A DNA stretch of 61,276 bases, the filler included. It is 14 parts of 14 records of this genome, joined end to end, with 100 filler letters (N's around TTAATTAATTAA, not from the genome) between each part and the next. Parts side by side here need not be neighbours in the genome. Positions count along the whole stretch, not along the records: positions 55,548 to 61,276 come from SRR7504441_112790; 13 more parts are not named here. One strand, 5' to 3'. The position numbers and the translations under genes are program-made. Of the stretch, positions 4-61,276 are shown piece after piece. Numbering within the stretch: the stretch's first letter is position 1; each line of letters begins with the position of its first letter. The notes beneath the pieces are model-generated. The model had not been told where the DNA came from. It made no database searches and saw only the letters and a list, made by a program, of their open reading frames with translations.

Positions 4-2073
4 ATGGTGTCGGGCGAGCGGGCTACCACCCTCGGCCAGCACGGCATGGTCTCGTGCACCCAGCGGCTCGCCTGCGCCGTCGGCGTGTCCGAGCTCGAGA
101 CAGGCGCCACCGCGCTCGAGGCTGCGGTGGCAGTGCAGCTGGCCCTCGCTGTAGTCGAGCCCCAGCACGTCTCCCTGCTCGGCGGGGGTGCCCTTATGTA
201 TCTGCCCCGCCGGGGTGAACCGCCGGTGTTTATGGACTTTAGGGAGGAGGCACCGGAGGAATACCACCCAGGCACGTTCTGCAAGGGCGCAGCCTGCGAT
301 CGACCGGGTGATCCACAGTGCACCTGTGCCGACGGGGTGTGGCCGTACGAGGAGCGCTGCAGCGGCGGGCACGCCACTGGAGTCCCGGGCGTGCCGGCAC
401 TGATCAGGCGGCTGTATTACGATGGATTAATCAAACGGCCCCTGCGAAGGCTCGCGGCGGGGGCGGTGCGATTAGCCCGAGAGGGCTTCCCGATGTACGA
501 CTTCTTGCACCGAACGATCACAGCAAAAGCCGAGTGGCTGTGCAGATACCCCGAGGCTCGGAGCACATTCCTGAATCCGGACTGTTCGAGTGCTAAGGTT
601 CAGGTTGGGGAGCTATTCACGCAGCCAGCGCTAGCACACACTCTGGAGACGTACTTTGACACACCGGAGAGCCTTGCGTCCTTTTACACCGGAGAGATGG
701 CCAGCGCCGTTGTCGCCGCATCGCGCAAGGCCCGGAACCCCGTGACCAGCAAATCAGGCCGGCTGCAGTTAACCGATCTAGCACTGTACCGCGCTGTGAG
801 GCGCGAGCCCATCAGCTTTGGGTACCGGGCACCTGACGGCGAGCTATACACTATCTACGGTCCTGGCATGCCTTTCTCAGGCCCGCTGACTATGAATCTA
901 GTCTTGAAGCAGTTGACGCGGCTCGAATTAGGCGCCGACCGCGTAAGCCTCGGGCAGTTCATGGATATTCAGAACGGTGCGTTTGCCGATCGTAATGCAT
1001 ACATGGCAGACGCCGACTTTGCGACAGTACCGGTGAAAGAGATGCTATCTGAGAGGTTCGCTTCCCAGAGGTTCGACAGCCTCTTTGCCAACGCCTCACT
1101 CCCATTGGCGACACCAGTGGCCCCTGGAAACACAGGCTCTGATCGACGAGGTGCCGAGTCGCCAGCAGTCGAGCACGGCACCTCACATATGTCTATCGCC
1201 GATGCTAGCGGTGGCGTCGTTGCAATGACGACTACAGTCAACGGATTGATGGGCTCCAAAGTCGTGGTAGAGGGGATGATTTTAAATAATCAACTCTGTG
1301 ACTTTGATGCGGTTGGGCTCCTCGCCTCCGGCAACATCACTGCCAACAGCCCAGAGGGTGCGCGAGCACCCCGCCGCACCGCAATTGGTCACGATCACAA
1401 TACCCGTGGAGGGAAGAGGCCGAGATCGTCCATGACTCCAATCATTGTGCTTCCTACCAGCAACGCGACTGTAGCAGCATTCGGAGCACCAGGTGTTTGA
1501 GCCAGGCAAATATGCATTCTGACTGTGTTGATAGGGGGCACCGACATCATCGGAGGGGTGACAAATGTTGTGAAGAACATGTGTGCTGCAGGCTTCCCTG
1601 CAGACCAGCTGCAGCAACAGACTGACCTCCCGCGGGTAATTGGGAAGAACAAACCTGGCATTTCAGGCTCGGTAGAGCGCGAAATCTACGACGACCCTGC
1701 TGCGATGGCAGCTCTGGATTCGCAAGGATATGCCCAGGCACGACTCGTCACAACGGAGACTGAGAGGCCTTATGCTGTGGGCGAGACGTTCGCTCGGGTG
1801 CAATCAGTCATGGTGACAGCGGAGGGGTTCTACGGGGCGTCTGACGCTTCGCGATTTCCGGAATGCGCATCACTGGCCCCCAGAAGCCAAACTGAAATAG
1901 CTGATGACGATAGCGCCAGTGCAGTCGATTCAAACGGCTCTCTGCCTGTTGGGATTGGCGTGGCGACGGGGTTGTCTGCACTTGTGGCCGTGGCTACTGT
2001 GCTTTTGTGGCGGAATGCTCTGAATAGTGTGGAACCCGAGCTCGAACAAACACACGAACTACCGTGCGGATAA
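4..2073 (+). CDS. GGT: gamma-glutamyltranspeptidase (probably 5'-partial), one intron 1493-1534, C-terminal transmembrane helix
   Basis: Motifs VVEPQHVSLLGGG, DFREEAP, TGVPG, FADRNAYMAD, catalytic Thr in HGTSHMS, LNNQLCDF and KRPRSSMTP. Removing a 42-nt GT-AG intron restores FGAPGG. Confidence 0.93.
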
Positions 2074-2163
2074 TAACTGAAAGATCGATAAAATCTCGAC
2101 AAAATCTCGATAAGATCTTCAATGTATAATTCGCTTTCGAATTAATACAGTCATACGATATCA

Positions 2164-3870
2164 TCACTTTACTCCCACCCACGGCCCCCAGTAACCTCCA
2201 TACTTGGAGTTTGCCACTTTGCACGCTTGGCCGTGGCGGGAGCCCCTATCCGGGCTGTAGACAGTGCCCTGGGCTTTGTCAACCTTGGCGAGCATCTCAG
2301 CAAATAAGCTCGGCATCTCAGCTGACAGGCTCTTGGTCTCGCTTGGGTCTTGCTTGATGTCAAATAAGCAGCCATCGGAGGCGTCTCGGCCGCACTTTCG
2401 CTTCTTGAGCGAGGGCACTAACCAGGACGATTTATTGGGCCAGAGCGGGCCTGTGAGTGTGTCCTGCTCGATCATATATTTCTTATTCTCAGCGCCTAGC
2501 AGAAGTTTGTAGTCGCCTTGGATCAGCCCGCCGACCAATGTCTTCCCGTCTCCGTTCGGACTGGTACTCGACGTATCCCCAATCACAAACCCGGACCGCG
2601 GGGCGGTGTGGTTAAGACCGGCCAGCAACGGCCACTGGTTGCTGCACAGCCAGTCAGTGCCCTCGGCGGCTCGGGCGGCTCACATGGAGTCGTGAGGTGG
2701 CAGCCCAGCTTTGGCCGCCTTGTGGTCGGTTGGGTCGACTCCTGCGATCGCCGCATAGGTGGCGTACCAGTCCCAGCTGGTGATGTAACTCGACTCCTTG
2801 GCGCCCCGTCGCTCAACGGGCAACGCACCTCCTGCAACCATCGCAGGCACACGGATCCCGCCTTCAAAGTTACTAAACTTCCCGCCCCGGAGAGGCCAGT
2901 TGTTCCCGCCACAGATACCGGCAAAGATGATCTCCCCGCCGTTGTCCGAATGAAAGACCACCAGTGTATCGTCCCACAGCTGAGCTGCTTTGAGCTCATC
3001 GAGAACTCGACCAATTTGCTCGTCCATCATGTTCACCATCGCGTCCATCGACCGGCGGTAGCCGTCATCCACCGAGCTGAACCGGTCCAGATATACCTGC
3101 GGCACCTCCAACGGCATGTGCACCAGGTGCATCGACCAGAACAAGAAAAGCCGCTCGTCCGGCGGATGCTCTCGAATCAGTCTGAGCACCTGGTCAGTGA
3201 GCAGCAGCTCCTCGTGCACACAGCTCTGATTGGCCGGCCGCTGCTGCTGCTGCGAGCAGTCGGGTCCGTTGGCCAGGTCAGCAGCTGGCCCGTTGCAGCG
3301 TGTCCCGATCCCGGTGTCACAGCTTTCATTGTACCGCCAGAGGTCTTTCATCGAGTGCACAAGCTCGCAGTGCGATTCAGCGTGGCTCCAGTAGTCGTTG
3401 GTATGGTGCCAGTAGCCCAGCCAGGACCCGAACCCCCTGCTGCCCGGACTGTGGCTTCGAGTGGCCATGCCTACATCCCATTTACCCACCATATGGGTCC
3501 GCCAGCCGGCCCCCTTGAGCAGCTCGGCCATACCTGTCATATTCCGCGGTATCCCCTGAAATCCGCCCTCCGGGTCCTTCGGGTTGATCACCTCCGGCGG
3601 CACGTTCTGGACGTTCACGTGGATGGGGGCCCGGCCGGTCTGGATCGCGCATCGGGAGGGCGAGCATATTTTGTGGGTATACAACCGGTCCAGCTCGAGC
3701 CCCTCGGCCAGCAGCGCGTCGAGTCGCGGGGTCCGGCTCTCCTCGGGGTGGTGCCAGCCCACCGCGGCCCATGAGAGGTCGTCGGCCAGGATGTGCACAA
3801 TATGTCTTGGGCCGCCCTCCCTCGCCAGCCCGCCGGCCGCCAGGAGCGCTATCAGCGCGAGAGGGTGCAT
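2164..3870 (-). CDS. secreted arylsulfatase (formylglycine-dependent S1, ARSB/I/J-like), intron 2642-2683
   Basis: Signal peptide, ILADD, CSPSR (CxPxR), VGKW, SDNGG, GGKFSNFEGGIRVP. A 42-nt GT-AG intron joins HDSI-NQWPLL. Confidence 0.93.
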
Positions 3871-5925: not shown

Positions 5926-6358
5926 CACTCCGAGTAGTTCGAACACACGTGCGTAACAGCAATTAATTAAGAAGAGCCAACTAGATAAATTCACTTACAC
6001 GTTCACTTATATAGCTAACAGCCATACCTAACTGCTCAAGGCCAGTCTTGTCACACGGCGTGATGTCGAGGGTCACNNNNNNNNNNNNNNNNNNNNNNNN
6101 NNNNNNNNNNNNNNNNNNNNTTAATTAATTAANNNNNNNNNNNNNNNNNNNNNNNNNNNNNNNNNNNNNNNNNNNNGAGTGGATGAATACCACGCGTGTC
6201 TACGAAGATGCTTGAGAACGGATGGTTCCACGACAACGTGAAAACCCCTCATGACGTCGTGTTGTGAGGAAAACCCCAAAATCGGCCAAAATCTTGAGAT
6301 TAAATTCGGATGTACATACTAGTATAGAAATCACCACGATTGTGCCTAGGTTGCTTCA

Positions 6359-9574: not shown

Positions 9575-10244
9575 NNNNNNNNNNNNNNNNNNNNNNNNNN
9601 NNNNNNNNNNNNNNNNNNTTAATTAATTAANNNNNNNNNNNNNNNNNNNNNNNNNNNNNNNNNNNNNNNNNNNNCCGCGGCCCAGACCGAGCAGGTTGAG
9701 GCGACGGATCTGCAAAACAGTGCACGTGTGGCGGAGTAACACAGCTCCGCGCTGTTGGCGCCGGCTCCCTGAAATACCTGGAGCGCCGCTTTACCCGCAG
9801 ATGGTCATGTACCGGCAATGAGCTCTATCCGCAGACCTGCCTCGGCGCCCGGGTCGGCGCCGAGCGCTGTATACACGTAGTGTGAAAGCCGGCTCGCCGG
9901 TTCAAGATAAGTGGCTTGCAAGCAACGCGCGAGCCTGGCCTGCTGGCAACACGGCGCCAGGCGATCGCGCAATGGCATACAACCCAACGCACAGTCGGGT
10001 GTCTTTTGATGAGTTTTTACTCGTGAGTACTGTATGTGCGCCATCTGTGCACGTCCGGCCGGACTTAAGTCTTTAGATCACGACATTACATGTAGCTAGT
10101 GTAATGTTAGTCATCAGTGCGCACTAACCTAGGGCGCCGGGCACATTACCGGGGTGTTTATGAGTACTCTGAGTAGCCGAACTGAAACTCTAGCCGGACA
10201 GTACACTGTAGCCGAATTTAACGGCTTCGACATTCAACCAAAAG

Positions 10245-34183: not shown

Positions 34184-34283
34184 NNNNNNNNNNNNNNNNN
34201 NNNNNNNNNNNNNNNNNNNNNNNNNNNTTAATTAATTAANNNNNNNNNNNNNNNNNNNNNNNNNNNNNNNNNNNNNNNNNNNN

Positions 34284-35349
34284 ACTCTTCACACACTAGG
34301 AAGTAGTCCAGCCTCTGGCCCTTGCCTTCATACCTGGCCCTCGCGAAGTTGCCGCCCGCATTGGCCTGACTCCCCCGCCACGTGAACACCGGCTCCCCTC
34401 GTGCTGGCGGCGAGTCTGGATTCACAGGGTGCAACTCCCTCCATGCGTCCAGTAGCCCACTCGCTGCCAGCGTCTCGCCAAACCGTCTTCTCTCGTTGTC
34501 GCTAAATCCCGGAATTCCCCGGTCGGCCTCCGGCGTTGCCTCCAAGTAATCCTGCTTCGCCTGCTTTGACTTGTCCTTCCTGACCGAATCTGGGAGCTCG
34601 GCCCGGAAAAAGTCCTCGTCCGTCGAGTCGTCCGGCGTGGCGGTCACGTTGAGGTCCCCGCACCATACGAGCGGCCTAGCAGGACTAGACGCCCGCCGTG
34701 CCGCCAGGAAGGCCAGGACTTCCTGGTCCCACTGCCGGCGCCGCGCACGCTTCTCGGGAATCCATCCATTGTTAGGCACGTACGTGTGCAGCAGGTCAAA
34801 TGTTTCGAACCGGGCGTACTGGATCCTGCCTTCCGTGTCGTGCTCGCCGCCTGCAGCCCCCGAGAGCGCCCTGGCGTAGCTATTCACCACGGGAACCGTC
34901 CCCATCCGCACATGGATCAGCAGCATCGTGCCGGCGCTCCGGCCATTCGCCAGCGACCAGTGAATATTGTAACTGTCCAGCGGCGGCTTCCTATCCTCCC
35001 GCTTCAGCCCGAATTCCTTAAGAGGCTTGAGCTCCACCTGATGTGGCCGGCCGCGCTCACGCCGGTCTGCCGATGACGGTTTATTGCTGGTGGCGCAGTG
35101 TGCCCAGACACAGGCCTCCTGGATGGCCAGCACGTCCGGGTCCTCTGCCCTGATCAGCGCCACCAGCGCCTGCAAGTCCTCGGACCGGCCACAGATATCA
35201 TTGTCATCCCCGGTCTTCAGACGGCTCATCAGCCCGTTGGCGTTCCAGCTGATCAGCACCGTCGGGTCGTCCAGCGGGCCCGCCGGCTCCTCCAGCCGCG
35301 GCCGCTTGGCCGCGCGTGGTGATTGGAAGAAGGACCGGATGTCCGCCAT
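34284..35349 (-). CDS. ExoIII/APE-family apurinic endonuclease, 3'-partial
   Basis: SWNANGL, DVLAIQE, YVPN, CGDLN, FTW, RLDYFL; N-terminal DIRSFF (PIP-like) and KRPRL (NLS-like). Confidence 0.92.
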
Positions 35350-35441
35350 GAGAGTGGGAGAGACCGAGTGAGCCGGCGACCCTGATGGCGCCACCCGCCG
35401 GCACCCGGTGCGATAACGGATTTGATTTCTGATCTGGCTCC

Positions 35442-36965
35442 ATGTTTGCACTGGCCCAGCCGGCGAGCGACGAGCAGCACTGGGCGCCGGACCGGGCGGC
35501 CGGCCAGTCAGTCGAGCCGCTGGCCGCCGGATGGGCCGGTCCGCGCGACCAGTCGGCCGCGGCGCTCGCCGAGCGGACGGTCGGAGTGCTGGCGCGCGAG
35601 GAGGGCCGGATGCAGCCGGGGTACACACTGCTCTGCCTCGGGCGGGAGACCTACCTGATCGACTCAGATGGGCGGGTGGTACACGAGTGGCGCGGGCTGC
35701 GCGACACGTTCTGCGCCTACCTGCTCCCCAACGGGGACCTGCTGCGAGACGGGAGCGAGAATGAACTGGCGGTGGGCTTCCGGGCCGGGGGGGCTTCCGG
35801 CTATCTGGAGCGGGTGACCTGGGACAACCAGCTGGTCTGGCGGTACAGCAAGCAGCCGTACGATGCATTTCTGTCGCACCACGACGTCGAGCCGCTGCCC
35901 AACGGCAACGTGATGGTGCTGCTCTGGGAGAGGAAGGACGCGGCCCAGGCGGTTCAGGCGGGCCGGCGGCCGGATCTGATCCCGGACGGCGAGGTCTGGA
36001 ACCAGCTGGTGCTCGAGATCGCGCCGGACGGGCATGGCGGGGCCGAGCCGGTCTGGGAGTGGAGCCTGTGGGACCATCTCTGCCAGGACTATGACAGGAC
36101 TAAGGATAACTACGTCGAGGACGTCGCAGCCCACCCGGAGCTGTACGACATCAACTTCTGCCCGGCGGGCGGCAAGGCCGGGCAGCGGAATGCGGAGCTG
36201 CTCAAGCCAGAGGGCGAGCGCTTCGCCGAGTACAATTCGGGGCTGTGCACCTTTTCTGGCAAGCCAGGCAGGACCGGGGAGAAGGACTGGATCCACTGCA
36301 ACGGGATATCGGTCAGCGCCGAGCGCGGGCAGGTGTTGCTTTCTTTCAATACGCAGTCCGAGGCTGTGATCATAGAGCATGGGAGCAACACCACCGAGTC
36401 GAAAGGGCACTCGGGAGGGCGCTACGGCAAGGGCGGGGATATTCTGCTCCGGTGGGGCAACCCGCAGGCTCACCGGGCCGGTTCGAGGCACGAGCAGCAC
36501 TTGTTCGTGCAGCACTCTGTTCAGTTTATTGGATCTGGCGAGCACGCGCTGCTTTTTAACAACGGCAGAGCGCCCGACCGGCACTGGTCCTCAGTTGATG
36601 AGTACAAGCTGCCCGCGGCCGGCGAGCAGGCGGCACCGCGGCTGGTGTGGAGCTTTGGCCCCCGAGTGGGCCGCCAGAATTCTTTTTATTGCACTCACTC
36701 GTCCGGATGCCAGCGACTGCCGAATGGCAACACCCTGATCACGTACGGGCCGCAGGGCACGATCACGGAGGTCACCCCCGACGGCGAGGAGGTGTGGCGG
36801 TTCGTAAACCCGGTGATGAAGGTCGACGGCGCGGTGGCGGTGGCGCGACAGGGTGACTCTCGCGCCGGAGGCAAGTTTGGGCTCTTCCGGGCACTGCGGC
36901 TGCCTCCGGAGTTCCCGGGGTTTGAAGGTAAGGTGATCAAGCCCTACCGTTATCTCGAGGGGTGA
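35442..36965 (+). CDS. aryl-sulfate sulfotransferase (ASST, beta-propeller), intronless
   Basis: LLPNGDLLR, SHHDVEPLPNGN, DWIHCNGI, RWGNP, QHS, LFNNG, SGCQRLPNGNTLIT. Confidence 0.88.
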   Translation: MFALAQPASDEQHWAPDRAAGQSVEPLAAGWAGPRDQSAAALAERTVGVLAREEGRMQPGYTLLCLGRETYLIDSDGRVVHEWRGLRDTFCAYLLPNGDLLRDGSENELAVGFRAGGASGYLERVTWDNQLVWRYSKQPYDAFLSHHDVEPLPNGNVMVLLWERKDAAQAVQAGRRPDLIPDGEVWNQLVLEIAPDGHGGAEPVWEWSLWDHLCQDYDRTKDNYVEDVAAHPELYDINFCPAGGKAGQRNAELLKPEGERFAEYNSGLCTFSGKPGRTGEKDWIHCNGISVSAERGQVLLSFNTQSEAVIIEHGSNTTESKGHSGGRYGKGGDILLRWGNPQAHRAGSRHEQHLFVQHSVQFIGSGEHALLFNNGRAPDRHWSSVDEYKLPAAGEQAAPRLVWSFGPRVGRQNSFYCTHSSGCQRLPNGNTLITYGPQGTITEVTPDGEEVWRFVNPVMKVDGAVAVARQGDSRAGGKFGLFRALRLPPEFPGFEGKVIKPYRYLEG

Positions 36966-38555: not shown

Positions 38556-40994
38556 ATGCTTGGCGTCATCCTCGTGCTGCTGACCTCGTCCTGCTCGGCC
38601 AGTCCGGCCTCCGTCCAGCCGGCATACGACCTGCTCGCCCGGCAGTTCGGGCCGTCCGCAGCCGCCGCGTTCGATCTCCGACTCTCGCCCGGGCTCCCGT
38701 GCGGTCGGCGGTGCTTTCAGCTGTCGCAGCGGGCCGGTGCTGACAAGGTGACCGTCTCGGCCACAGGAATGAGCGAGCTGACCTACGGGCTGGGCTACTA
38801 CGCCCGCTTTCACTGTGGGCTCACTGTAGGCTGGCCGCGCGGCGGGGGCAGCGTCAGGGAGCCGATCGGCCGGCAGTGGCCGTGCGGCAGCTCGGTCGGG
38901 CCAATCGCGGTGCGTCGGGCGGTGAACTTCACTTTCCAAGACAACGTGTGCACCCACTCGTATTCATACGTGTGGTACGATGCCGCTGCCTGGTCTGACC
39001 ACATCGACTGGATGGCTCTGAGCGGAATTAATGTCTTCTACGCCCTGGCCGGTCAGGAGGAGATCCAGTACAAAGTGTTCCGCAAGTTCAATCTCACAGA
39101 CTCGCAGATCCGAGGCTTCTTCAACGGACCGGCCTTCCTCACCTGGAGTCGCGGGCAGAGCCTTCAGTCTGTCGGCGCCCCGCTAGCCCGGTCCTGGATG
39201 CAAGCGCAGTGGCGCCTTCAGAAGCAGATCCTGGCCCAGGCACGCTCGCTTGGGATGATTGGCGTTCTCCCGGCGTTTCAGGGCAACACGCCGCCCGCGA
39301 TCAAGGCGATGCATCCCCGAGCAAACTGTACCGTTACAGATGCCGAGACGACCGGGGCGTATTCCAAGCAGATCGACCAAGCAGGGAGGTGTGCCTGGAT
39401 AGCCTCTACAGATCCGCTTTTCGGGGCAGTGGCGGATGAATGGATGCGGACGATAATTGCGGACTTTGGGAGCGATCACTGGTACCAATCCGATGGCTGG
39501 TTTACTGGGGCTAAGCCACCTTGGTATGAACTGGAGCTGACTGAGCCACAGACCCGGCCCGTTGAACCTTCAGCCGTGACGCCCGACCGGCACTGGCTGC
39601 CGGTGTGGCAGGCCGCTTGGCAAGGGATGGCTCGGACCGACCCCAATGCCGTCTGGTTGTACCAAGGCTGGGCGGTACGCGGATGGAACGATGCGGCCGG
39701 CGCTTCCAGGATGAAAGCGCTGGTAAGCGTAGTGCCTCAGGGGCAGTTTGTATTGCTGGACATGGACGTGCAAGGCATCTGGCGTTACTTTGGGAATTAC
39801 TCCTTTTTTGGTGCGCCGTTTATCTGGACCACTTTGCATAACATGGGAGGCAACGACGGGCTCAAAGGTGACATGAGGCTGTTGCAGCATATGCCCGGTG
39901 ACGCACTGGATGCCGGCGCCTCGATCGTCGGCACTGGTGCCACGCCTGAGGGAATCGACCAGAATGCGGCCTACTACGTGCCTTTATCTCCCTGATTGCT
40001 TGTTGAGGCTGTGATTGTGCAGGAGTATGCCTATGACACCGCCTGGCACGCCCGGCCACAGGCGCTGGAGGACTGGTTTGCTGTGTACGCCTGTCGACGA
40101 TACGGTGGGGTTTACGACACTCACGCCCAGCACTGCCAAACCCGAAACCCGAACAGTGTGGCGGCAGCGGCGGCGGCGTGGGAGATTTTGAGAGTTTCAG
40201 TGTATGAGACCCAGGCTGGCGGCTTTCACGATGATACCGGAGTGGAGTGGAATGGACTGGCTAAGCCCCCTGTGCCACAAGGGGCGAACCTGACACAGCT
40301 CCAGGCGGCCTGGTGCCACCTGATCAATGCAACCAGTTCGCTGAACGAGAAGCTGCCAGACACGCTAAATTATGATCTCGTGAATGTTGGCCGAGAGGTG
40401 CTTGCTCGTCTGATTTCGAGCACGGAAGCTGACCTCGTGGACGCTGTTGCCACCACCAGCCATTCGCACTTTGAAACGGCCAGTGCGAGGCTGATAGGCC
40501 TATTCACGGACTTGGACACGCTGCTGGCATGCGAATTCGGGTTTCTCATCGGGCCATGGATAGAGGATGCTCGACGGTGGGGCAATATGACCGACCCTCA
40601 AGGTACTGCAGACCTGATGGAGTGGAATGCGCGTTCTCAAGTGTCGACTTGGTGGCCAGTGAGTCCGCAAGAGGCGTCTGATGACCCGAAAGTGTTTACT
40701 CACTTGCCAGTGCTTGACAATTATGCTAACAAGCACTGGCAAGGGCTAGTAAGTGATTTCTATTTGCCGAGGATTCAGTGCTACATTGACCAAGCAGAAC
40801 GTGATATCTTTGCGAGCACAAGTAAGGTCATCAATCAGGCCAACTTGACTTCTTGTATCGTACACGCGGAGCTGAGCTTCACTCAAGGTACAAGCAACCA
40901 GAGCAATGCTTACGCTACCCAGCCTAGTGGCAGAACCTTGGCTGTGAGCCAAGCGCTTTACCACAAGTATGTAATTGTTGTAGAAAGGGAGTAG
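38556..40994 (+). CDS. NAGLU: alpha-N-acetylglucosaminidase-like protein (GH89), intron 39978-40022
   Basis: Signal peptide, NVCTHSYSYVW, IDWMALSGIN, FFNGPAFLTWSR, LHNMGG, TPEGIDQN, EWNARSQV, YANKHWQGL. Confidence 0.92.
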
Positions 40995-55447: not shown

Positions 55448-55547
55448 NNNNNNNNNNNNNNNNNNNNNNNNNNNNNNNNNNNNNNNNNNNNTTAATTAAT
55501 TAANNNNNNNNNNNNNNNNNNNNNNNNNNNNNNNNNNNNNNNNNNNN

Positions 55548-58500
55548 CCTTGCTTCAGTGTGAGCACAGTGTGCTCATCATCTCTTGTTGCGCTAGATGC
55601 AGCTACACAGAACCTGCAGTTGGGCCGGTGCACTGCGGGGCTGGTGGCTGGAGTGAATATGATCTTCGATCCAGTTGGGTTCCTTTGTCTCGGGTCTGCT
55701 TTGGCTCCAGATGGCAAGTGCAAGACCTTTGATACAGCTGCAAATGGAATGGGCCGTGGCGATGCAACTGGTGCAGCGCTATTGCGTCCCTTGGAACTCG
55801 AAGGAGATACTCAAGTTGTGATCCGGGCTTCCGGCGTTAACCAGGATGGCAGAAGTGCGTCCATGGCTGCAGCAAACGGGCCATCGCAGGTGGAGCTGCT
55901 CTGTGATGTCATACAGCGAGCCACCGTAGTGGCAGATTGGCGCTGCTCCAGCGAGACTCACGGCACTGGAACTACGCTGGGCGATCCGATCGAAGTCGGT
56001 GCTCTGCGTGCAGTGTTTGGGCATGGGACCAGTTGCAGTGCGCCAATGGTGCTGGGAGCGCTGAAGTCGCGGCTGGGGCACACCGAGGGCGCTTCAGGAA
56101 TAATGGGCGTTCTCAAGGCGGCGCTTCTGCTCTATCAAGCCGCCCGTCCTACCAACTTACACCTGCAAGTGTCCAACCCGAAACTGGAACTGGACGGGTT
56201 TGGTGCTGTGCTGCCAGTGGTAGCTGTTGCTGCGCGTGTCAAGCGGACAAGTGCAGATGCAGCCTGGACCAGTGGGGTGAGCTCGTTTGGCATGTCGGGT
56301 ACCAACAGCCATGCTGTGCTGGACAATACGATGTTGACCGTGAAATTGTCGCAACACCTCGAGAAATCATCAATGGTGCAATACAACACCAGATCTTTTG
56401 CCTGGGTTGTACTACTGTCAGACGAGGCTGGCGATGTGATGCGAAACCCACCAAAATTTGTTGATGAGCATCTGTACGAGGTGGCATGGAAGCCCTCACG
56501 AGCAAACTCAGAACAACAGCTTCTTGTTGAGTATTTGGGAAGCTACAAAACAATGATGACCGCATCTGACCTTTCTCAGTTCACTGTGTGCGTCATCGGC
56601 GCGGGAGCCACCGGGATTGGCATTGCTGGGATGCTCTCCAGACACCAGATTTCATCTGTCATGGTAGACAGGCGGCCCTGTATTGGAGGTCTGTGGCACG
56701 ACGGGTATGCTGGGCTTCGGTTGCATTGTCCAACTTACTACTACCAGTTTCTTGACGATCAGCTGGAAAACGAACCTCATCGAAACAAACTGCTCGCGCA
56801 CCGGCGTACGGCACAGGAGCAGCTTGAATATTTCGAGGACTATGCTAAGCGCCGCAGGCTAGCTTTTGTTCATAGTGTACATTGTGAGTTGCCTTCTGTT
56901 GTTCATAGGACAACTGCCTCTCCAACAGTCGTAATGTCTATCAACGCAGAATCTGTCCAGCTAGAAGTCAGCTTCAAGTGGGCTATTGATGCTCGCTTAG
57001 CTCGTCTTAACGCTGGTTCTCTGCGTCAATTAGCAGGAGCTGAACAGCTCACAACAGAACATATTCTTGGACCAAGTAGTTCCAGTTACATTGTCGTGGG
57101 CGGTGGCAAGTCTGGAGCAGACGCAGTCGTGGAGCTCTCAAGGGCTGGTAAAAAGAATGTTGTATGGATTTGCTCAAAGAAGCTCGGTTTCTCTCGAAGA
57201 GAGGACATGGCTGATCCGCAAAGCCGGGTGAGAGCACTAAAGCAATTCTACGAAGATTGGTTCAAAAGTGATGAAGAGGAGATTCTCGAGTTGTCCAACC
57301 TTGTCAGTCCTCATGACTCCTTTGATTGCTTCAAGTTCGGGATTATCGATCAAGAAGAATTAGACATTTTGACTCAAGTTCAAAAGGTGTATGGGCGGGT
57401 GACGAAGGTAACCACCTCTCTCAACCTCCAGTGCATAGTTGACCTGGAGGATGGCCGGTCCCTTGCAGCGGACAAGGTCATCAGCGCACTGGGTCCAGAT
57501 GCCCAAGCTGTAGTCACAGACCGATCGCATATCCGGACAAGCGCATCCCTGGTGCTCGACATGATCGACTTTGATAATCATGTACTTCATGCGAACAACG
57601 AGGTGGGCGAAGCTGCGCTGGGTGCGAGCCTTCTCGGTCTGCTAGCAGCAGGAGTCATCAGCAATACCATACCACGTTCGAAGTGTGAGAACATAAAACG
57701 TCTCAAGCGCTCGATCCCTCTTCTGGGATGTATAGCACCCTGGATGGCGCGGGACACAAACTCTGCACTGCAAGACAGCACTGTCTTCGAGGCATACATT
57801 GTCGAACTGTTAACCGGGGTCCGCACCGCATTCCGAGCGCTCGAATGGTCGACACAGCGGTCCTTGCTGCGGATGGATGACGAGTCTACGGTACCGGACT
57901 TTGCACTGCTAAGCCCTATCACACTCACACTATACCTGGGGTCGTTGAGATTGGACCCAGCTCTCCAGCAACACCGTGTTGTTTCGACAGTTCAAGAAAC
58001 GATCAATGTGATGGCAATGCCGGCAAAGGTGAGCACACTGCTTGTCGTATCAGCAGGGGCTCTCCAACCTGTCCAGGGTGTCTATGCTGGCTTGGTGCTG
58101 GTACAGATAGCCGATCTGGATAGGCAATCTCCGACAATCTGGTTCGTGACACACGGCACACAGGGTGAAACTATCCACTCTTCTGATGGATCTGGGCTCT
58201 GGGGGTTGGCCCGCACAGTACGTATCGAAAAAGGAAGCACTCTACCATGTGGATGTCTCGATCTCAAAGAGTCAACTGCGCTGATTGCCATCAATAGCTT
58301 GGATGTATTCGAGCCTGAGGTTTTACAGCAAGAAGGAAAGGACCATCATCCGGTATTGAAGCGGGCCCACTGCACCGCAATGCAGGTGCTGGCAGCCCCA
58401 CGCCGCGCCCATGTTATCACTGGAGGTACTGGTGCCTTAGGACTGGTGTCGGCTGCTTGGTTGTCGGCGGGAGATGCCATCCGGATCATCCTGTTATCCC

Positions 58501-61276
58501 GGACCGGATCGATTGATGCTGCTGAGAGGTGGGTGTCGTTGGCACAGTCCGGAGTGTCAGTGCTACTAGTGCAGGGAAGCATAACGGAACGGCTACAACT
58601 CGAAGCACTCAACAGTAACCTAGCCACACAGCAGCTAGGTCACCTTGTGCACTCCGCTGGGACACTGGCCGACGCTGTCTTCCGAAATCAGACGTTTGCG
58701 AAGCTGACGCGTGTCTGGAGGCCCAAGGTTCAGGGACTGGCAGCCTTGGATGCTTGCAAGTTCAGTGCAGACTTTACGCTGCTCTTTTCGTCAATGTCGG
58801 GCCTGCTTGGATGTTACGGGCAAACCAACTATTCCGCTGCAAACACCCATATGGATGCAGTTGCACGATTATGTCGAACCCAGGAGAAGCCCTGGACAAG
58901 CATTCAGTGGTCAGCATGGTCTGGCTCCGGGATGGCAGCACCGATCGCTAGTGAAGTGGAACAGACTGGCATACAGCTTATCGAGCCCTCCCAGGGGTGG
59001 TCAGCTCTTGACTGGTGCACCAAGTACAGACCTGCAGTGGTGGCAGTAATCCCAGTGTCCTGGCCGACCTTTGTCTTTGAAAAGTCAAACTTCGGTTCCG
59101 ACTTTTTTTCTGAAGTGGCATTGCCTGCAGTAGCTGCGCCACTTCATGGTTCTCATAGCTCGGGACTGTTGCCGTTCATGAATGAAACCCAGAAACGGAA
59201 CTTGTTAGAGAGCATTTTCGCGGAAGAATTGCAAAAACTGGCAACCAGCGATCTGGTGCTTTCCGCGGATGATGCACTCCCCGACGTGCTGGATTCCCTC
59301 CAAGCACTGGAGTTTCAGCATTGTTTGTCTCGGAGGCTACCTGGTGTCAGCATCCCAGCTAGCGCACTCTTTGAGCATCCCACGACCCGAAGTTTTGTGG
59401 CCTTCTTGAACAGCTCATATCAAGTACACTCGCCTTCCAGCAAAGATGTAGTTTCTGTTCTCGAGCCATGTGCAACCGCAGTTGTGCTATGCGGAAAGAG
59501 CTGTCGGCTGGCCCAAAGAATGCAAAGTGGGCAGCAGTTCTTCAGATTCCTTGTGGAAGCCGCCTGCTGTATCACACAAGCTTCGCGCACACGATGGGCA
59601 GTGATGAGTGCACATTTTGAGGATCTTGAGCCTGATTTCGGCATTGGATCGTTCCTTGAGGATCTAGAGCTATTCGATGCAACTTACTTCGGACTGAAGC
59701 CACGGTTAGCAAAGAGTCTCGATCCGCATATCCGTGTGCTCCTTGAGTTGGTGGCAGAAGCATTATTGGATTCTGATTTGCTAGCTCTCCACCACACACG
59801 GCATAATCCAGTAGGTCTATTTGCTGGCACTCAACAGCGAGACTTTGCCTTGCCGTGTGGGAACAATGATGTTCCACGAGTAATTGCCCATGCTCTGAAT
59901 TTGCAGGGTCCACTTGAGCAGATTGAGCTCGAGTGCACATCGTCCCATGTTGCCGCTGCCCGCTCACTCACTTCTTTGAGGGAGAAACACTGTGCATCTG
60001 CCGTGGTTGCTGGGCTCTGTCTCCGGCTCACAGCGCCATTCGAGCGGTTTGTCATGTCAGATACTTTTCGAAGTACAACTGGTATTTGTAGGCCGTTAGA
60101 TGAGGCGTGCGACGGTGGTGTGAGAAGCGAGGGAGGAGGCGCATTGGTTCTGCAGCTGTGCACTCACGAGAAACCGAGAATGTCTGTAACACTTCAGAGT
60201 GCAAAAATCACTCGTAGCAGTATTCAGTTGGCCTCGCTGGCATCACCTGACCCTGAAGCACAGTCTGTTGCAATGAGGCAAGCTCTGGCAGGGGTTGGAG
60301 AATCGCCTGTCGCTGTGGCCATCTGTCATGTCCATGGGGTGGGACAAAAGATTGCAGACACATGTGAGATCTACGCATTAGCGAATGTGTATGGACAATC
60401 TCAGTCCGCACCACAGGTAACACTGATGAATCACAAGGCAAACTACGGACACACAACAGAAGGGTCGGGTGCACTCGCACTGATTTTGACCGCCCTATCG
60501 CTATACGAGTCGGTGCCGGCACACATGTACGTGGTACGGCCACTTGGAGCTATCGATCCATTTTTACTTGTACCGTGCTCACTCACAAGAACAGACGGCA
60601 GATCGTCAGTAGCTTCTGTGAACGGACAGGCCACGTCTGGTGTCAATGCACACTTGGTACTGTCCAAGCGCGCAGATGAATTACCGGATTTCTTGACATG
60701 CAGCAAGATAGAATACGAGCAGGCATCCTATCCCTGGTGCGATTTGCCTATGCGTGGGGTACGCCCTCAGCTTCCTTCAGACCCCGGTAGCCTGACAATT
60801 TCGAGCTCCCAACAAGATGAGGCTGATTCGGATAAGATCCGCTTTCGTTACTGGAACTGCCGGGGCACCGGGCAGGTGTGCCGGTACATGCTGCATGACA
60901 GCGGCACCGATGGACAGGATTTTGACGACGAGGTGGTCAGATTTACACAGGCCAGAGCCTGGGCTCTTGATAAGTTGGAAGAGTCCAAGACTGGCCCATT
61001 CCACTCTCTCCCAATGGTGGAGCATAGGGGAGAGTGCCTGAGTGAATCATCGGCCTGTACGCTCTACGTGGCCGAGCAGTTCGGATATTTGCCAGTCGAT
61101 CCGATGGAAAGGGCGAAGGCGTCGATGATCTGGCAGCATGTGAAAGAAGAAATAATTCATCGCATCGGCAGCGGTATGTATGAGCGCGAAGAGTGGCAAA
61201 CCATCATCGGCGGTGGAAAGTACCAGAGCTGGAGTACTTTTGTATCAAAGTACCAGAACCTGGAGGACGTGCTGAG
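55548..61276 (+). CDS. AT-less modular type I polyketide synthase fragment: KS - KR with inserted flavin monooxygenase - ACP - KS - GST; open at both ends
   Basis: Hand translation from 55548 gives 1909 codons with no stop. KS1: TVCSSS, HGTGT, GHTEG. FMO: GAGATG, GGLW, GGGKSG. KR: GGTGALG, HSAGTLAD, YSAAN. ACP: LDSL. KS2: ECTSS, HGVG, GHTT. GST: YWNCRG, PFHSLP, SES. Confidence 0.93.

Follow-up and report, generated by a model that had tools for sequence, protein, structure and literature searches.

Modular polyketide synthases (PKSs) recruit many odd tailoring domains, and the locus described here raises the question of whether a glutathione S-transferase (GST) has become one of them. The DNA that was analysed, hereafter called the window, is 61,276 nt long and consists of 14 records of about 3–7 kb each, split by 13 artificial spacers. 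The locus is its last record (positions 55548–61276, 5729 nt), in which a GST follows a ketosynthase (KS) in one open frame; this observation, first made in an earlier note on the same DNA, was confirmed by our analysis. Our results support a new domain built into a modular PKS; it is known from one truncated metagenomic contig, the host of which is uncertain. The earlier note had spoken of a polyketide megasynthase, and PKS domains are indeed present, but only a contig fragment of 5729 nt is visible, the window being a set of concatenated records.

Results

A GST follows a ketosynthase in one open frame

The frame that begins at 55548 was open throughout, for 1909 codons, to position 61274. 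Its translation contained both peptides quoted in the earlier note, KIRFRYWNCRGTGQVCRYML and GPFHSLPMVEHRGECLSESSACTLYVAEQFGYLPVDPMERAKASMI, directly behind the second KS (KS2), and over positions 60300–61276 it was the sole open frame of the six, the other two forward frames carrying 16 and 13 stops and each reverse frame 7–10. The start of the GST had been placed one base off, at 60835, as the lysine codon of KIRF(RYWN) occupies 60834–60836. The domains followed one another in the order KS (C-terminal half, KS1), flavin monooxygenase-like domain, ketoreductase (KR), acyl carrier protein (ACP), KS2, a linker of about 32 residues and the N-terminal domain of the GST (Table 1). In KS2, the active-site Cys was found in ELECTSS (59925) and the two His residues in VHGVGQ (60330) and NYGHTT (60441), followed by the post-KS motif YEQASYPW (60714–60737). 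The best solved relative of KS2 in a PDB search was a bimodule of a trans-acyltransferase (trans-AT) PKS (7zma_A, E 4e-48), with which the Cys and both His residues were aligned. With 1909 stop-free codons and a KS2 that keeps its Cys, His and His, the claim of a GST in frame behind a KS held, and a fusion of the GST in one frame behind KS2 is supported by the translated sequence.

The remainder of the frame had the make-up of a PKS. In KS1, the active-site Cys motif STVCSSS (55563) was the first in view and was followed by HGTGT (55956), GHTE (56070) and the post-KS motif YNTRSFAW (56382–56405). The order expected of a module was found, namely a KS with Cys-His-His, a KR and an ACP with its serine motif. 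No acyltransferase was among the 22 Pfam families matched on the 1909 aa of the visible fragment, which makes the part in view AT-less. The predicted domains show that the last record codes for a portion of a modular PKS of this AT-less (trans-AT) type. For the flavin monooxygenase-like domain, every Pfam match (Pyr_redox_3, FAD_binding_3) was under the curated cut-off, and a phmmer search of the PDB matched 4usq_A (E 5.7e-8) and the flavin-dependent monooxygenase 8z12 (E 2e-6). Its activity could be that of an alpha-hydroxylase, a Baeyer–Villiger oxygenase or an S-oxygenase, perhaps in cooperation with the GST.

The junction between KS2 and the GST

The tails of KS1 and KS2 share the ending Y-x3-S-[FY]-x-W, and a BLASTP alignment of the two tails (E 1e-14) spans this motif. 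As both KSs end in the same motif, PKS homology stops at about 60737, 32 codons ahead of the first strand of the GST (60834). The region of the junction (60650–60900) was covered by contigs assembled separately from public runs, at a depth of only 2–4 and with the proviso that one run may be the window's own source. One contig of 336 nt (X5) spans KS2, linker and GST from 60620 to 60955, and another of 160 nt (X3), from a different study, spans 60716–60875, both with no differences, so that the junction was recovered in two studies. Further contigs (X1) added 60220–60590 and 60857–61030. Positions 61087–61276 were uncovered by contigs of other runs, and no loose contig end lay there. Overall, parts of the PKS record were found in nine marine or aquatic metagenome runs from eight studies. 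Since the PKS frame is free of stops as far as the sequence reaches, a ribosome translating the PKS would continue into the GST.

The domain behind KS2 is a Tyr-type GST

When the isolated 151 aa were searched, the Pfam family GST_N gave a borderline match (21.3 bits, E 3.5e-4, with a cut-off of 20.9), and with all 1909 aa scanned at once it reached only 16.0 bits (E 0.016). A phmmer search of the PDB with the GST region returned 119 GST-family sequences at E≤10, with 4q5f_A (Ascaris GST1) at the top (E 8.6e-8) and nu/sigma and alpha class enzymes next, and a HMMER search against 1.84 billion representatives gave 94 matches at E≤1e-3, 10 of them at E≤1e-10 (best 9.7e-30). An AlphaFold model of the fragment, built with a 12-sequence alignment, had a predicted local distance difference test (pLDDT) score of 76.4 and a thioredoxin-like order of strands (E) and helices (H), that is, E6–10, H16–26, E34–38, H44–50, E65–68, E71–74 and H76–86, with long helices after it (H94–119). 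Foldseek with this model matched 444 entries at E≤1e-3, led again by 4q5f (E 6.6e-7), and among the matches listed all were GST-superfamily entries. The predicted identity of the domain as a GST is thus secure, and its assignment in the earlier note to the N-terminal domain of a Tyr-type cytosolic GST was upheld, the nearest structures being nematode nu/sigma and alpha enzymes.

In the alignment with 4q5f, Tyr10, Trp47, Lys51, Leu63-Pro64 and Glu75-Ser76 (residue numbers are positions in the 151-aa fragment) stood opposite Tyr, Trp, Lys, Leu-Pro and Gln-Ser, so that the catalytic Tyr (in RYW), the Leu-Pro pair and the Glu-Ser pair pointed out beforehand all have counterparts in a solved enzyme. 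We take the Tyr to activate the thiolate, the Trp and Lys to touch the glycine end of glutathione, the L-P to hold the cis-Pro and the (E/Q)-Ser to make the gamma-glutamyl contacts. Among 40 relatives, 61 columns were at least 90% conserved, and the window GST kept 41 of them, including Tyr10, Trp47, Lys51, Leu63 and Pro64. Cys13 (60858–60860), three residues past the catalytic Tyr, was kept in the window GST and in at least 90% of the 40 relatives, which hints at disulfide-exchange chemistry, reductase- or dehalogenase-like, over plain conjugation.

The best structure matches among solved GSTs were 15–25% identical to the window GST. Membership in one GST class corresponds, as a rule of thumb, to an identity of about 40% or more, and at 15–25% the window GST therefore belongs to no named class (sigma, nu or alpha); of the description 'sigma/pi/mu-like' given beforehand, the Tyr-type site stood and the class affiliation did not. 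The end of the window lies about 12 residues into the stretch that matches GST_C_3 in relatives (aa 172–254 of the relative P0002). As the GST_C_3 of full-length relatives starts about where the window stops, about 85 residues of the C-terminal domain are out of view, and neither the C-terminal half of a GST nor a further PKS piece was found in the other 13 records of the window.

Free-standing relatives of the window GST

Related loci were sought with a 5-sequence alignment, the 12-sequence one being too diverse. The scan of metagenome contigs yielded 50 loci at 35–45% identity, all of them with an in-frame stop 7–101 codons upstream of the GST, and the complete proteins had about 275–305 aa. 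The scan of prokaryotes, with one genome per species, yielded 10 loci (L051–L060), all in marine gammaproteobacterial metagenome-assembled genomes labelled Luminiphilus, Halieaceae, Pseudohongiella, K189A clade and Pseudomonadales. Because 37 of the 50 metagenome loci were 83–99% identical in DNA to these gammaproteobacterial loci, most of the free-standing relatives are bacterial. Other relatives had Thr-rich leaders (P0002, P0004, P0005, L005 and L007) or a low GC content (L044–L049) and may be eukaryotic (protists); P0002 is a EukProt record labelled Picozoa.

These relatives, here called 'RYWNC' GSTs, share with the window GST the R-Y-W-N-C start, W-x3-K, L-P, E-[ST] and G-Y-x-P, and the full-length ones have GST_C_3. 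In a FastTree phylogeny of 79 rows (matches of 190–300 aa and de-duplicated loci), the window GST fell within a clade of 33 rows with a Shimodaira–Hasegawa-like support of 99, nearest to P0002 (43% identity). It is 31–43% identical to its clade relatives and is the most diverged member of the 'RYWNC' clade, and it is fused behind a KS where the clade is otherwise made up of stand-alone proteins of about 275 aa.

The family is common to marine Gammaproteobacteria and to sequences with eukaryote-like leaders or low-GC exon-like pieces, a distribution that may reflect transfer between domains of life. Two copies (L057 and L060) lay on one Luminiphilus contig. The bacterial neighbourhoods gave no functional lead, as the surroundings of L054 (methyltransferases, a lytic polysaccharide monooxygenase and RecQ) and of L052 (a transposase and DUF4440) had nothing in common.

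KS-GST fusions in databases and literature

The window GST had no match at E≤1e-3 in proteins of 343–1094, 1049–3341 or 3342–5000 aa. The longest of the 94 HMMER matches (1070 aa) showed repeated GST-like stretches, with no KS motif visible by eye. A GST domain within a PKS was undescribed in the full-text literature searched, which lay outside subscription-only literature and InterPro architecture tables, and the words 'glutathione' and 'GST' were both absent from the main texts of the PKZILLA preprint (10.1101/2024.01.29.577497), a PKS survey of Karenia brevis, Shelest et al. (2015) and a review on mining algal natural products. The statement of the earlier note that no KS-GST has been characterised therefore agrees with both the literature and the protein collections searched, and the status of the architecture as 'unprecedented' rests on these searches.

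The host of the PKS record

The PKS record was the compositional outlier of the window, with a GC content of 0.53 vs 0.60 and a GC content at third codon positions (GC3) of 0.53. Its tetranucleotide correlation with the other records was 0.58–0.59, compared with 0.75–0.95 among the others, and with the gammaproteobacterial GST loci it was 0.47–0.59; the two halves of the record agreed with each other (r 0.77). The ORFs of 8 of the 13 other records were scanned and included eukaryotic-type genes (ALIX/BRO1, FYVE, Ras, NAGLU, TEL2-like and ankyrin). An Atlas search with KS2 retrieved bacterial KS clusters only, which is not evidence of origin, and an Rfam scan of the window matched no family. 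The PKS record may come from the eukaryote of the other records, from a compositionally odd region of that genome or from a mis-binned bacterium. A eukaryotic origin of the fragment is not secure, given that the record is a compositional outlier and that most of the free GST relatives are bacterial.

One of the other records carries a NAGLU gene that is broken by 45 nt (39978–40022), which start with GT, end with AG and contain an in-frame TGA. From these signals, the insert is probably a very short spliceosomal intron and the organism of that record probably one with tiny introns.

Features of the window

The PKS fragment opens inside a KS at a spacer and breaks off inside the GST at the end of the window. 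The 13 spacers, each of the composition given in Table 1, lie at 6077–6176, 9575–9674 and onwards to 55448–55547. As they are artificial, synteny across records is meaningless and ORFs are unable to cross them, and because of the last spacer no upstream DNA is part of the PKS.

Table 1. Positions of the PKS-GST domains and of the adjoining spacer in the window
Feature	Position	Strand	Basis or remark
Artificial spacer, N44 + TTAATTAATTAA + N44	55448..55547	none	Last record starts after it
KS1, C-terminal part	55548..56405	+	Pfam Ketoacyl-synt_C 145.4 bits, KAsynt_C_assoc 28.8 bits
Class B flavin monooxygenase-like domain, two Rossmann motifs	56583..57182 (aa 346–545)	+	Between KS1 and KR
KR	58410..58922 (aa 955–1125)	+	Pfam KR 139.7 bits
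ACP	59211..59408 (aa 1222–1287)	+	Pfam PP-binding 28.8 bits; LDSLQ serine motif at 59289
KS2, complete	59478..60737	+	Pfam ketoacyl-synt, aa 1311–1536
Ser/Gln/Asp-rich linker, about 32 codons, stop-free, in-frame ATG at 60750	60738..60833	+	Frame translation, motif positions
GST, predicted thioredoxin-like N-domain (Tyr at 60849–60851) and first C-domain helices	60834..61274	+	Cut by window end

Two further observations concern other records. A gamma-glutamyltranspeptidase gene was found at 4–1500 (+ strand, Pfam 246.6 bits), a type of enzyme that trims glutathione conjugates; since it lies on another record, it cannot be regarded as linked to the PKS-GST. A 507-aa ORF resembling arylsulfotransferases (ASST; 35442–36965, + strand) overlaps an opposite-strand ORF of 546 aa of the Exo_endo_phos (endonuclease/exonuclease/phosphatase) family (34228–35868).

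Discussion

A proposed function for the fused GST

We give an even chance to the reading that the genuine GST fused to KS2 binds glutathione and works in cis on the tethered chain. The residues of its glutathione site are kept despite about 60% of positions differing from every relative, which suggests that the domain most likely binds glutathione and would form its thiolate. Its location behind a KS with an intact Cys-His-His, together with the presence of a tailoring flavin monooxygenase behind KS1, suggests that it most likely acts in cis, where it would work on the thioester-bound intermediate of its module. The glutathione thiolate would probably attack an electrophilic carbon of the chain, either an enoyl/enone carbon or an epoxide. 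The outcome would be either a C–S bond kept in the product or an isomerised or reduced chain, with glutathione used only transiently. We advance only tentatively, as a possibility, the fuller proposal that this is the first assembly-line PKS module with a built-in, active GST acting on the tethered chain, that the carbon attacked may be made ready by the flavin monooxygenase of the module before it, that the pathway leads to a marine polyketide that is sulfur-bearing or has been isomerised or reduced with glutathione, by a route that would differ from those of leinamycin and gliotoxin, and that the GST was captured from a family shared by marine Gammaproteobacteria and protists.

Alternative explanations

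Several observations weigh against a GST acting on the chain, and we present them here together with the alternatives on which they bear. It is unlikely, in our judgement, that the GST fold is structural only, serving as a dimerisation or docking element that ends the PKS subunit after a KS (a split module), without glutathione chemistry. Free GSTs are obligate dimers, and GST-like domains assemble the multi-aminoacyl-tRNA-synthetase complex; between KS2 and the GST there is no linker domain of the KS-AT type, just the 32 or so residues past the post-KS motif. The end branch of the window GST is the longest in its clade (1.25 vs at most 0.7), which also fits relaxed constraint, and 20 of the 61 family-conserved columns are altered. 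In the G-R-G motif, Thr replaces the Arg of the family, and an Arg is found two positions earlier, as in 4q5f. In the contigs of other runs, 11 of the 16 differences were nonsynonymous, including two of the three in the GST, and five were synonymous; these variants give no sign of purifying selection and are uninformative in this respect, since at depths of 2–4 some may be errors. In addition, the GST is cut before most of the C-terminal domain that forms the substrate site, and its completeness is unproven. The long branch, the lost Arg and the low-depth, residue-changing variants thus weaken a catalytic reading. Set against a purely structural role is the retention of Tyr10, Trp47, Lys51, Leu63-Pro64 and Glu75-Ser76, all at 31–43% identity to the relatives; moreover, the end of the polypeptide lies outside the view, so that an ending after the GST is not established.

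We find it quite improbable that KS2 and the GST are not one protein, the GST being the product of a separate downstream gene or exon (through the ATG at 60750 or splicing) or the junction an artefact of low-coverage assembly. The fusion has been seen in one sequence only, and the related loci are all free-standing, with a stop ahead of the GST in every one of the 50 metagenome loci and with PKS sequence at none of the 60 loci (50 from metagenomes and 10 from genomes; tblastn with PKS aa 1–1755). Translation from the in-frame ATG could yield a GST of its own, whose Ser-rich leader of 28 residues would be about as long as those of relatives. With a stop density of about 4.5% per codon in the other frames, we estimate that a gap of 32 codons would be open and in frame by chance in roughly 8% of cases, which is not negligible. 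GC3 steps from 0.47 in KS2 to 0.67 in the GST part, and among the 11 runs matched there was no RNA run containing the stretch; the low depth of the runs leaves room for an artefact of assembly. This alternative is opposed by the PKS frame, which has no stop before the end of the window, by the two separately assembled contigs, which cross the junction without a difference in two studies, and by the like composition of the two halves of the record.

We know of no natural GST that has acyl-thioester exchange as its role. Chain release, in which GST-activated glutathione would attack the acyl thioester on KS2 or a carrier protein and, taking over the part of a thioesterase, off-load the chain as a glutathionyl thioester, is in our view very unlikely. 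In its favour, the GST is the last domain in view after a KS, no thioesterase was seen by Pfam in the visible fragment, and GST A1-1 was made thioester-hydrolysing by one added His, according to the title of PDB entry 1usb. Against it, the protein continues beyond the window, so that a terminal position is unproven, and KS2 retains its full condensing triad, which favours elongation rather than release.

Comparison with known systems

The GST proposed here to act within a module can be compared with enzymes of four kinds. Its closest relatives, the free-standing 'RYWNC' GSTs (L051–L060, P0002, L005 and L007), belong to the same clade and are all uncharacterised. They are proteins of their own with no PKS nearby, in contrast to the window copy, which is fused to a KS and has Thr in G-R-G. 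The best solved matches were the nematode nu/sigma GSTs 4q5f, 2ws2 and 1zl9, alpha GSTA1-1 and the sigma prostaglandin D synthases 2vcq and 2hnl. They share with the window GST a Tyr-type site, in which Tyr, Trp, Lys, Leu-Pro and (Q/E)-Ser correspond, but they are soluble homodimers rather than domains of a synthase, and their identity to the window GST is low, as given above.

Sulfur is inserted in leinamycin biosynthesis by the DUF-SH domain of LnmJ, within a trans-AT-type PKS, and GliG is a free-standing, sulfur-inserting GST-family enzyme of gliotoxin biosynthesis, of the type found in fungal ETP clusters. The layout in the window is KS-X-KR-ACP-KS, with the extra catalytic domain straight after the KS, as in trans-AT modules with tailoring domains. 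The PKZILLAs of Prymnesium have flavoprotein alpha-hydroxylase (FLX) domains inside trans-AT modules (10.1101/2024.01.29.577497). Both systems are AT-less and have a flavoenzyme in the module, and in this layout the FLX domains are the closest precedent for the module ahead of KS2. DrcA of Dictyostelium is described as a glutathione-dependent DIF-1 dechlorinase of the Ure2p-like class, in which the glutathione thiolate attacks the polyketide scaffold and a pocket Cys then resolves the conjugate (PMC3205185). Cys13 of the window GST may be comparable to this resolving Cys. DrcA and GliG both direct the glutathione thiolate at a natural-product scaffold, and they differ from the window GST in being separate proteins that act on released molecules.

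Significance

If the GST is active, growing polyketides could be given C–S bonds, or be modified with glutathione as cofactor, by a new on-line means; the domain would also offer a portable part for engineering and point to an unknown sulfur-related metabolite made in marine plankton. If it is structural only, megasynthases would be seen to use a new kind of element for dimerisation or docking. Either way, a free-standing enzyme of the detoxification type would have been captured by an assembly line.

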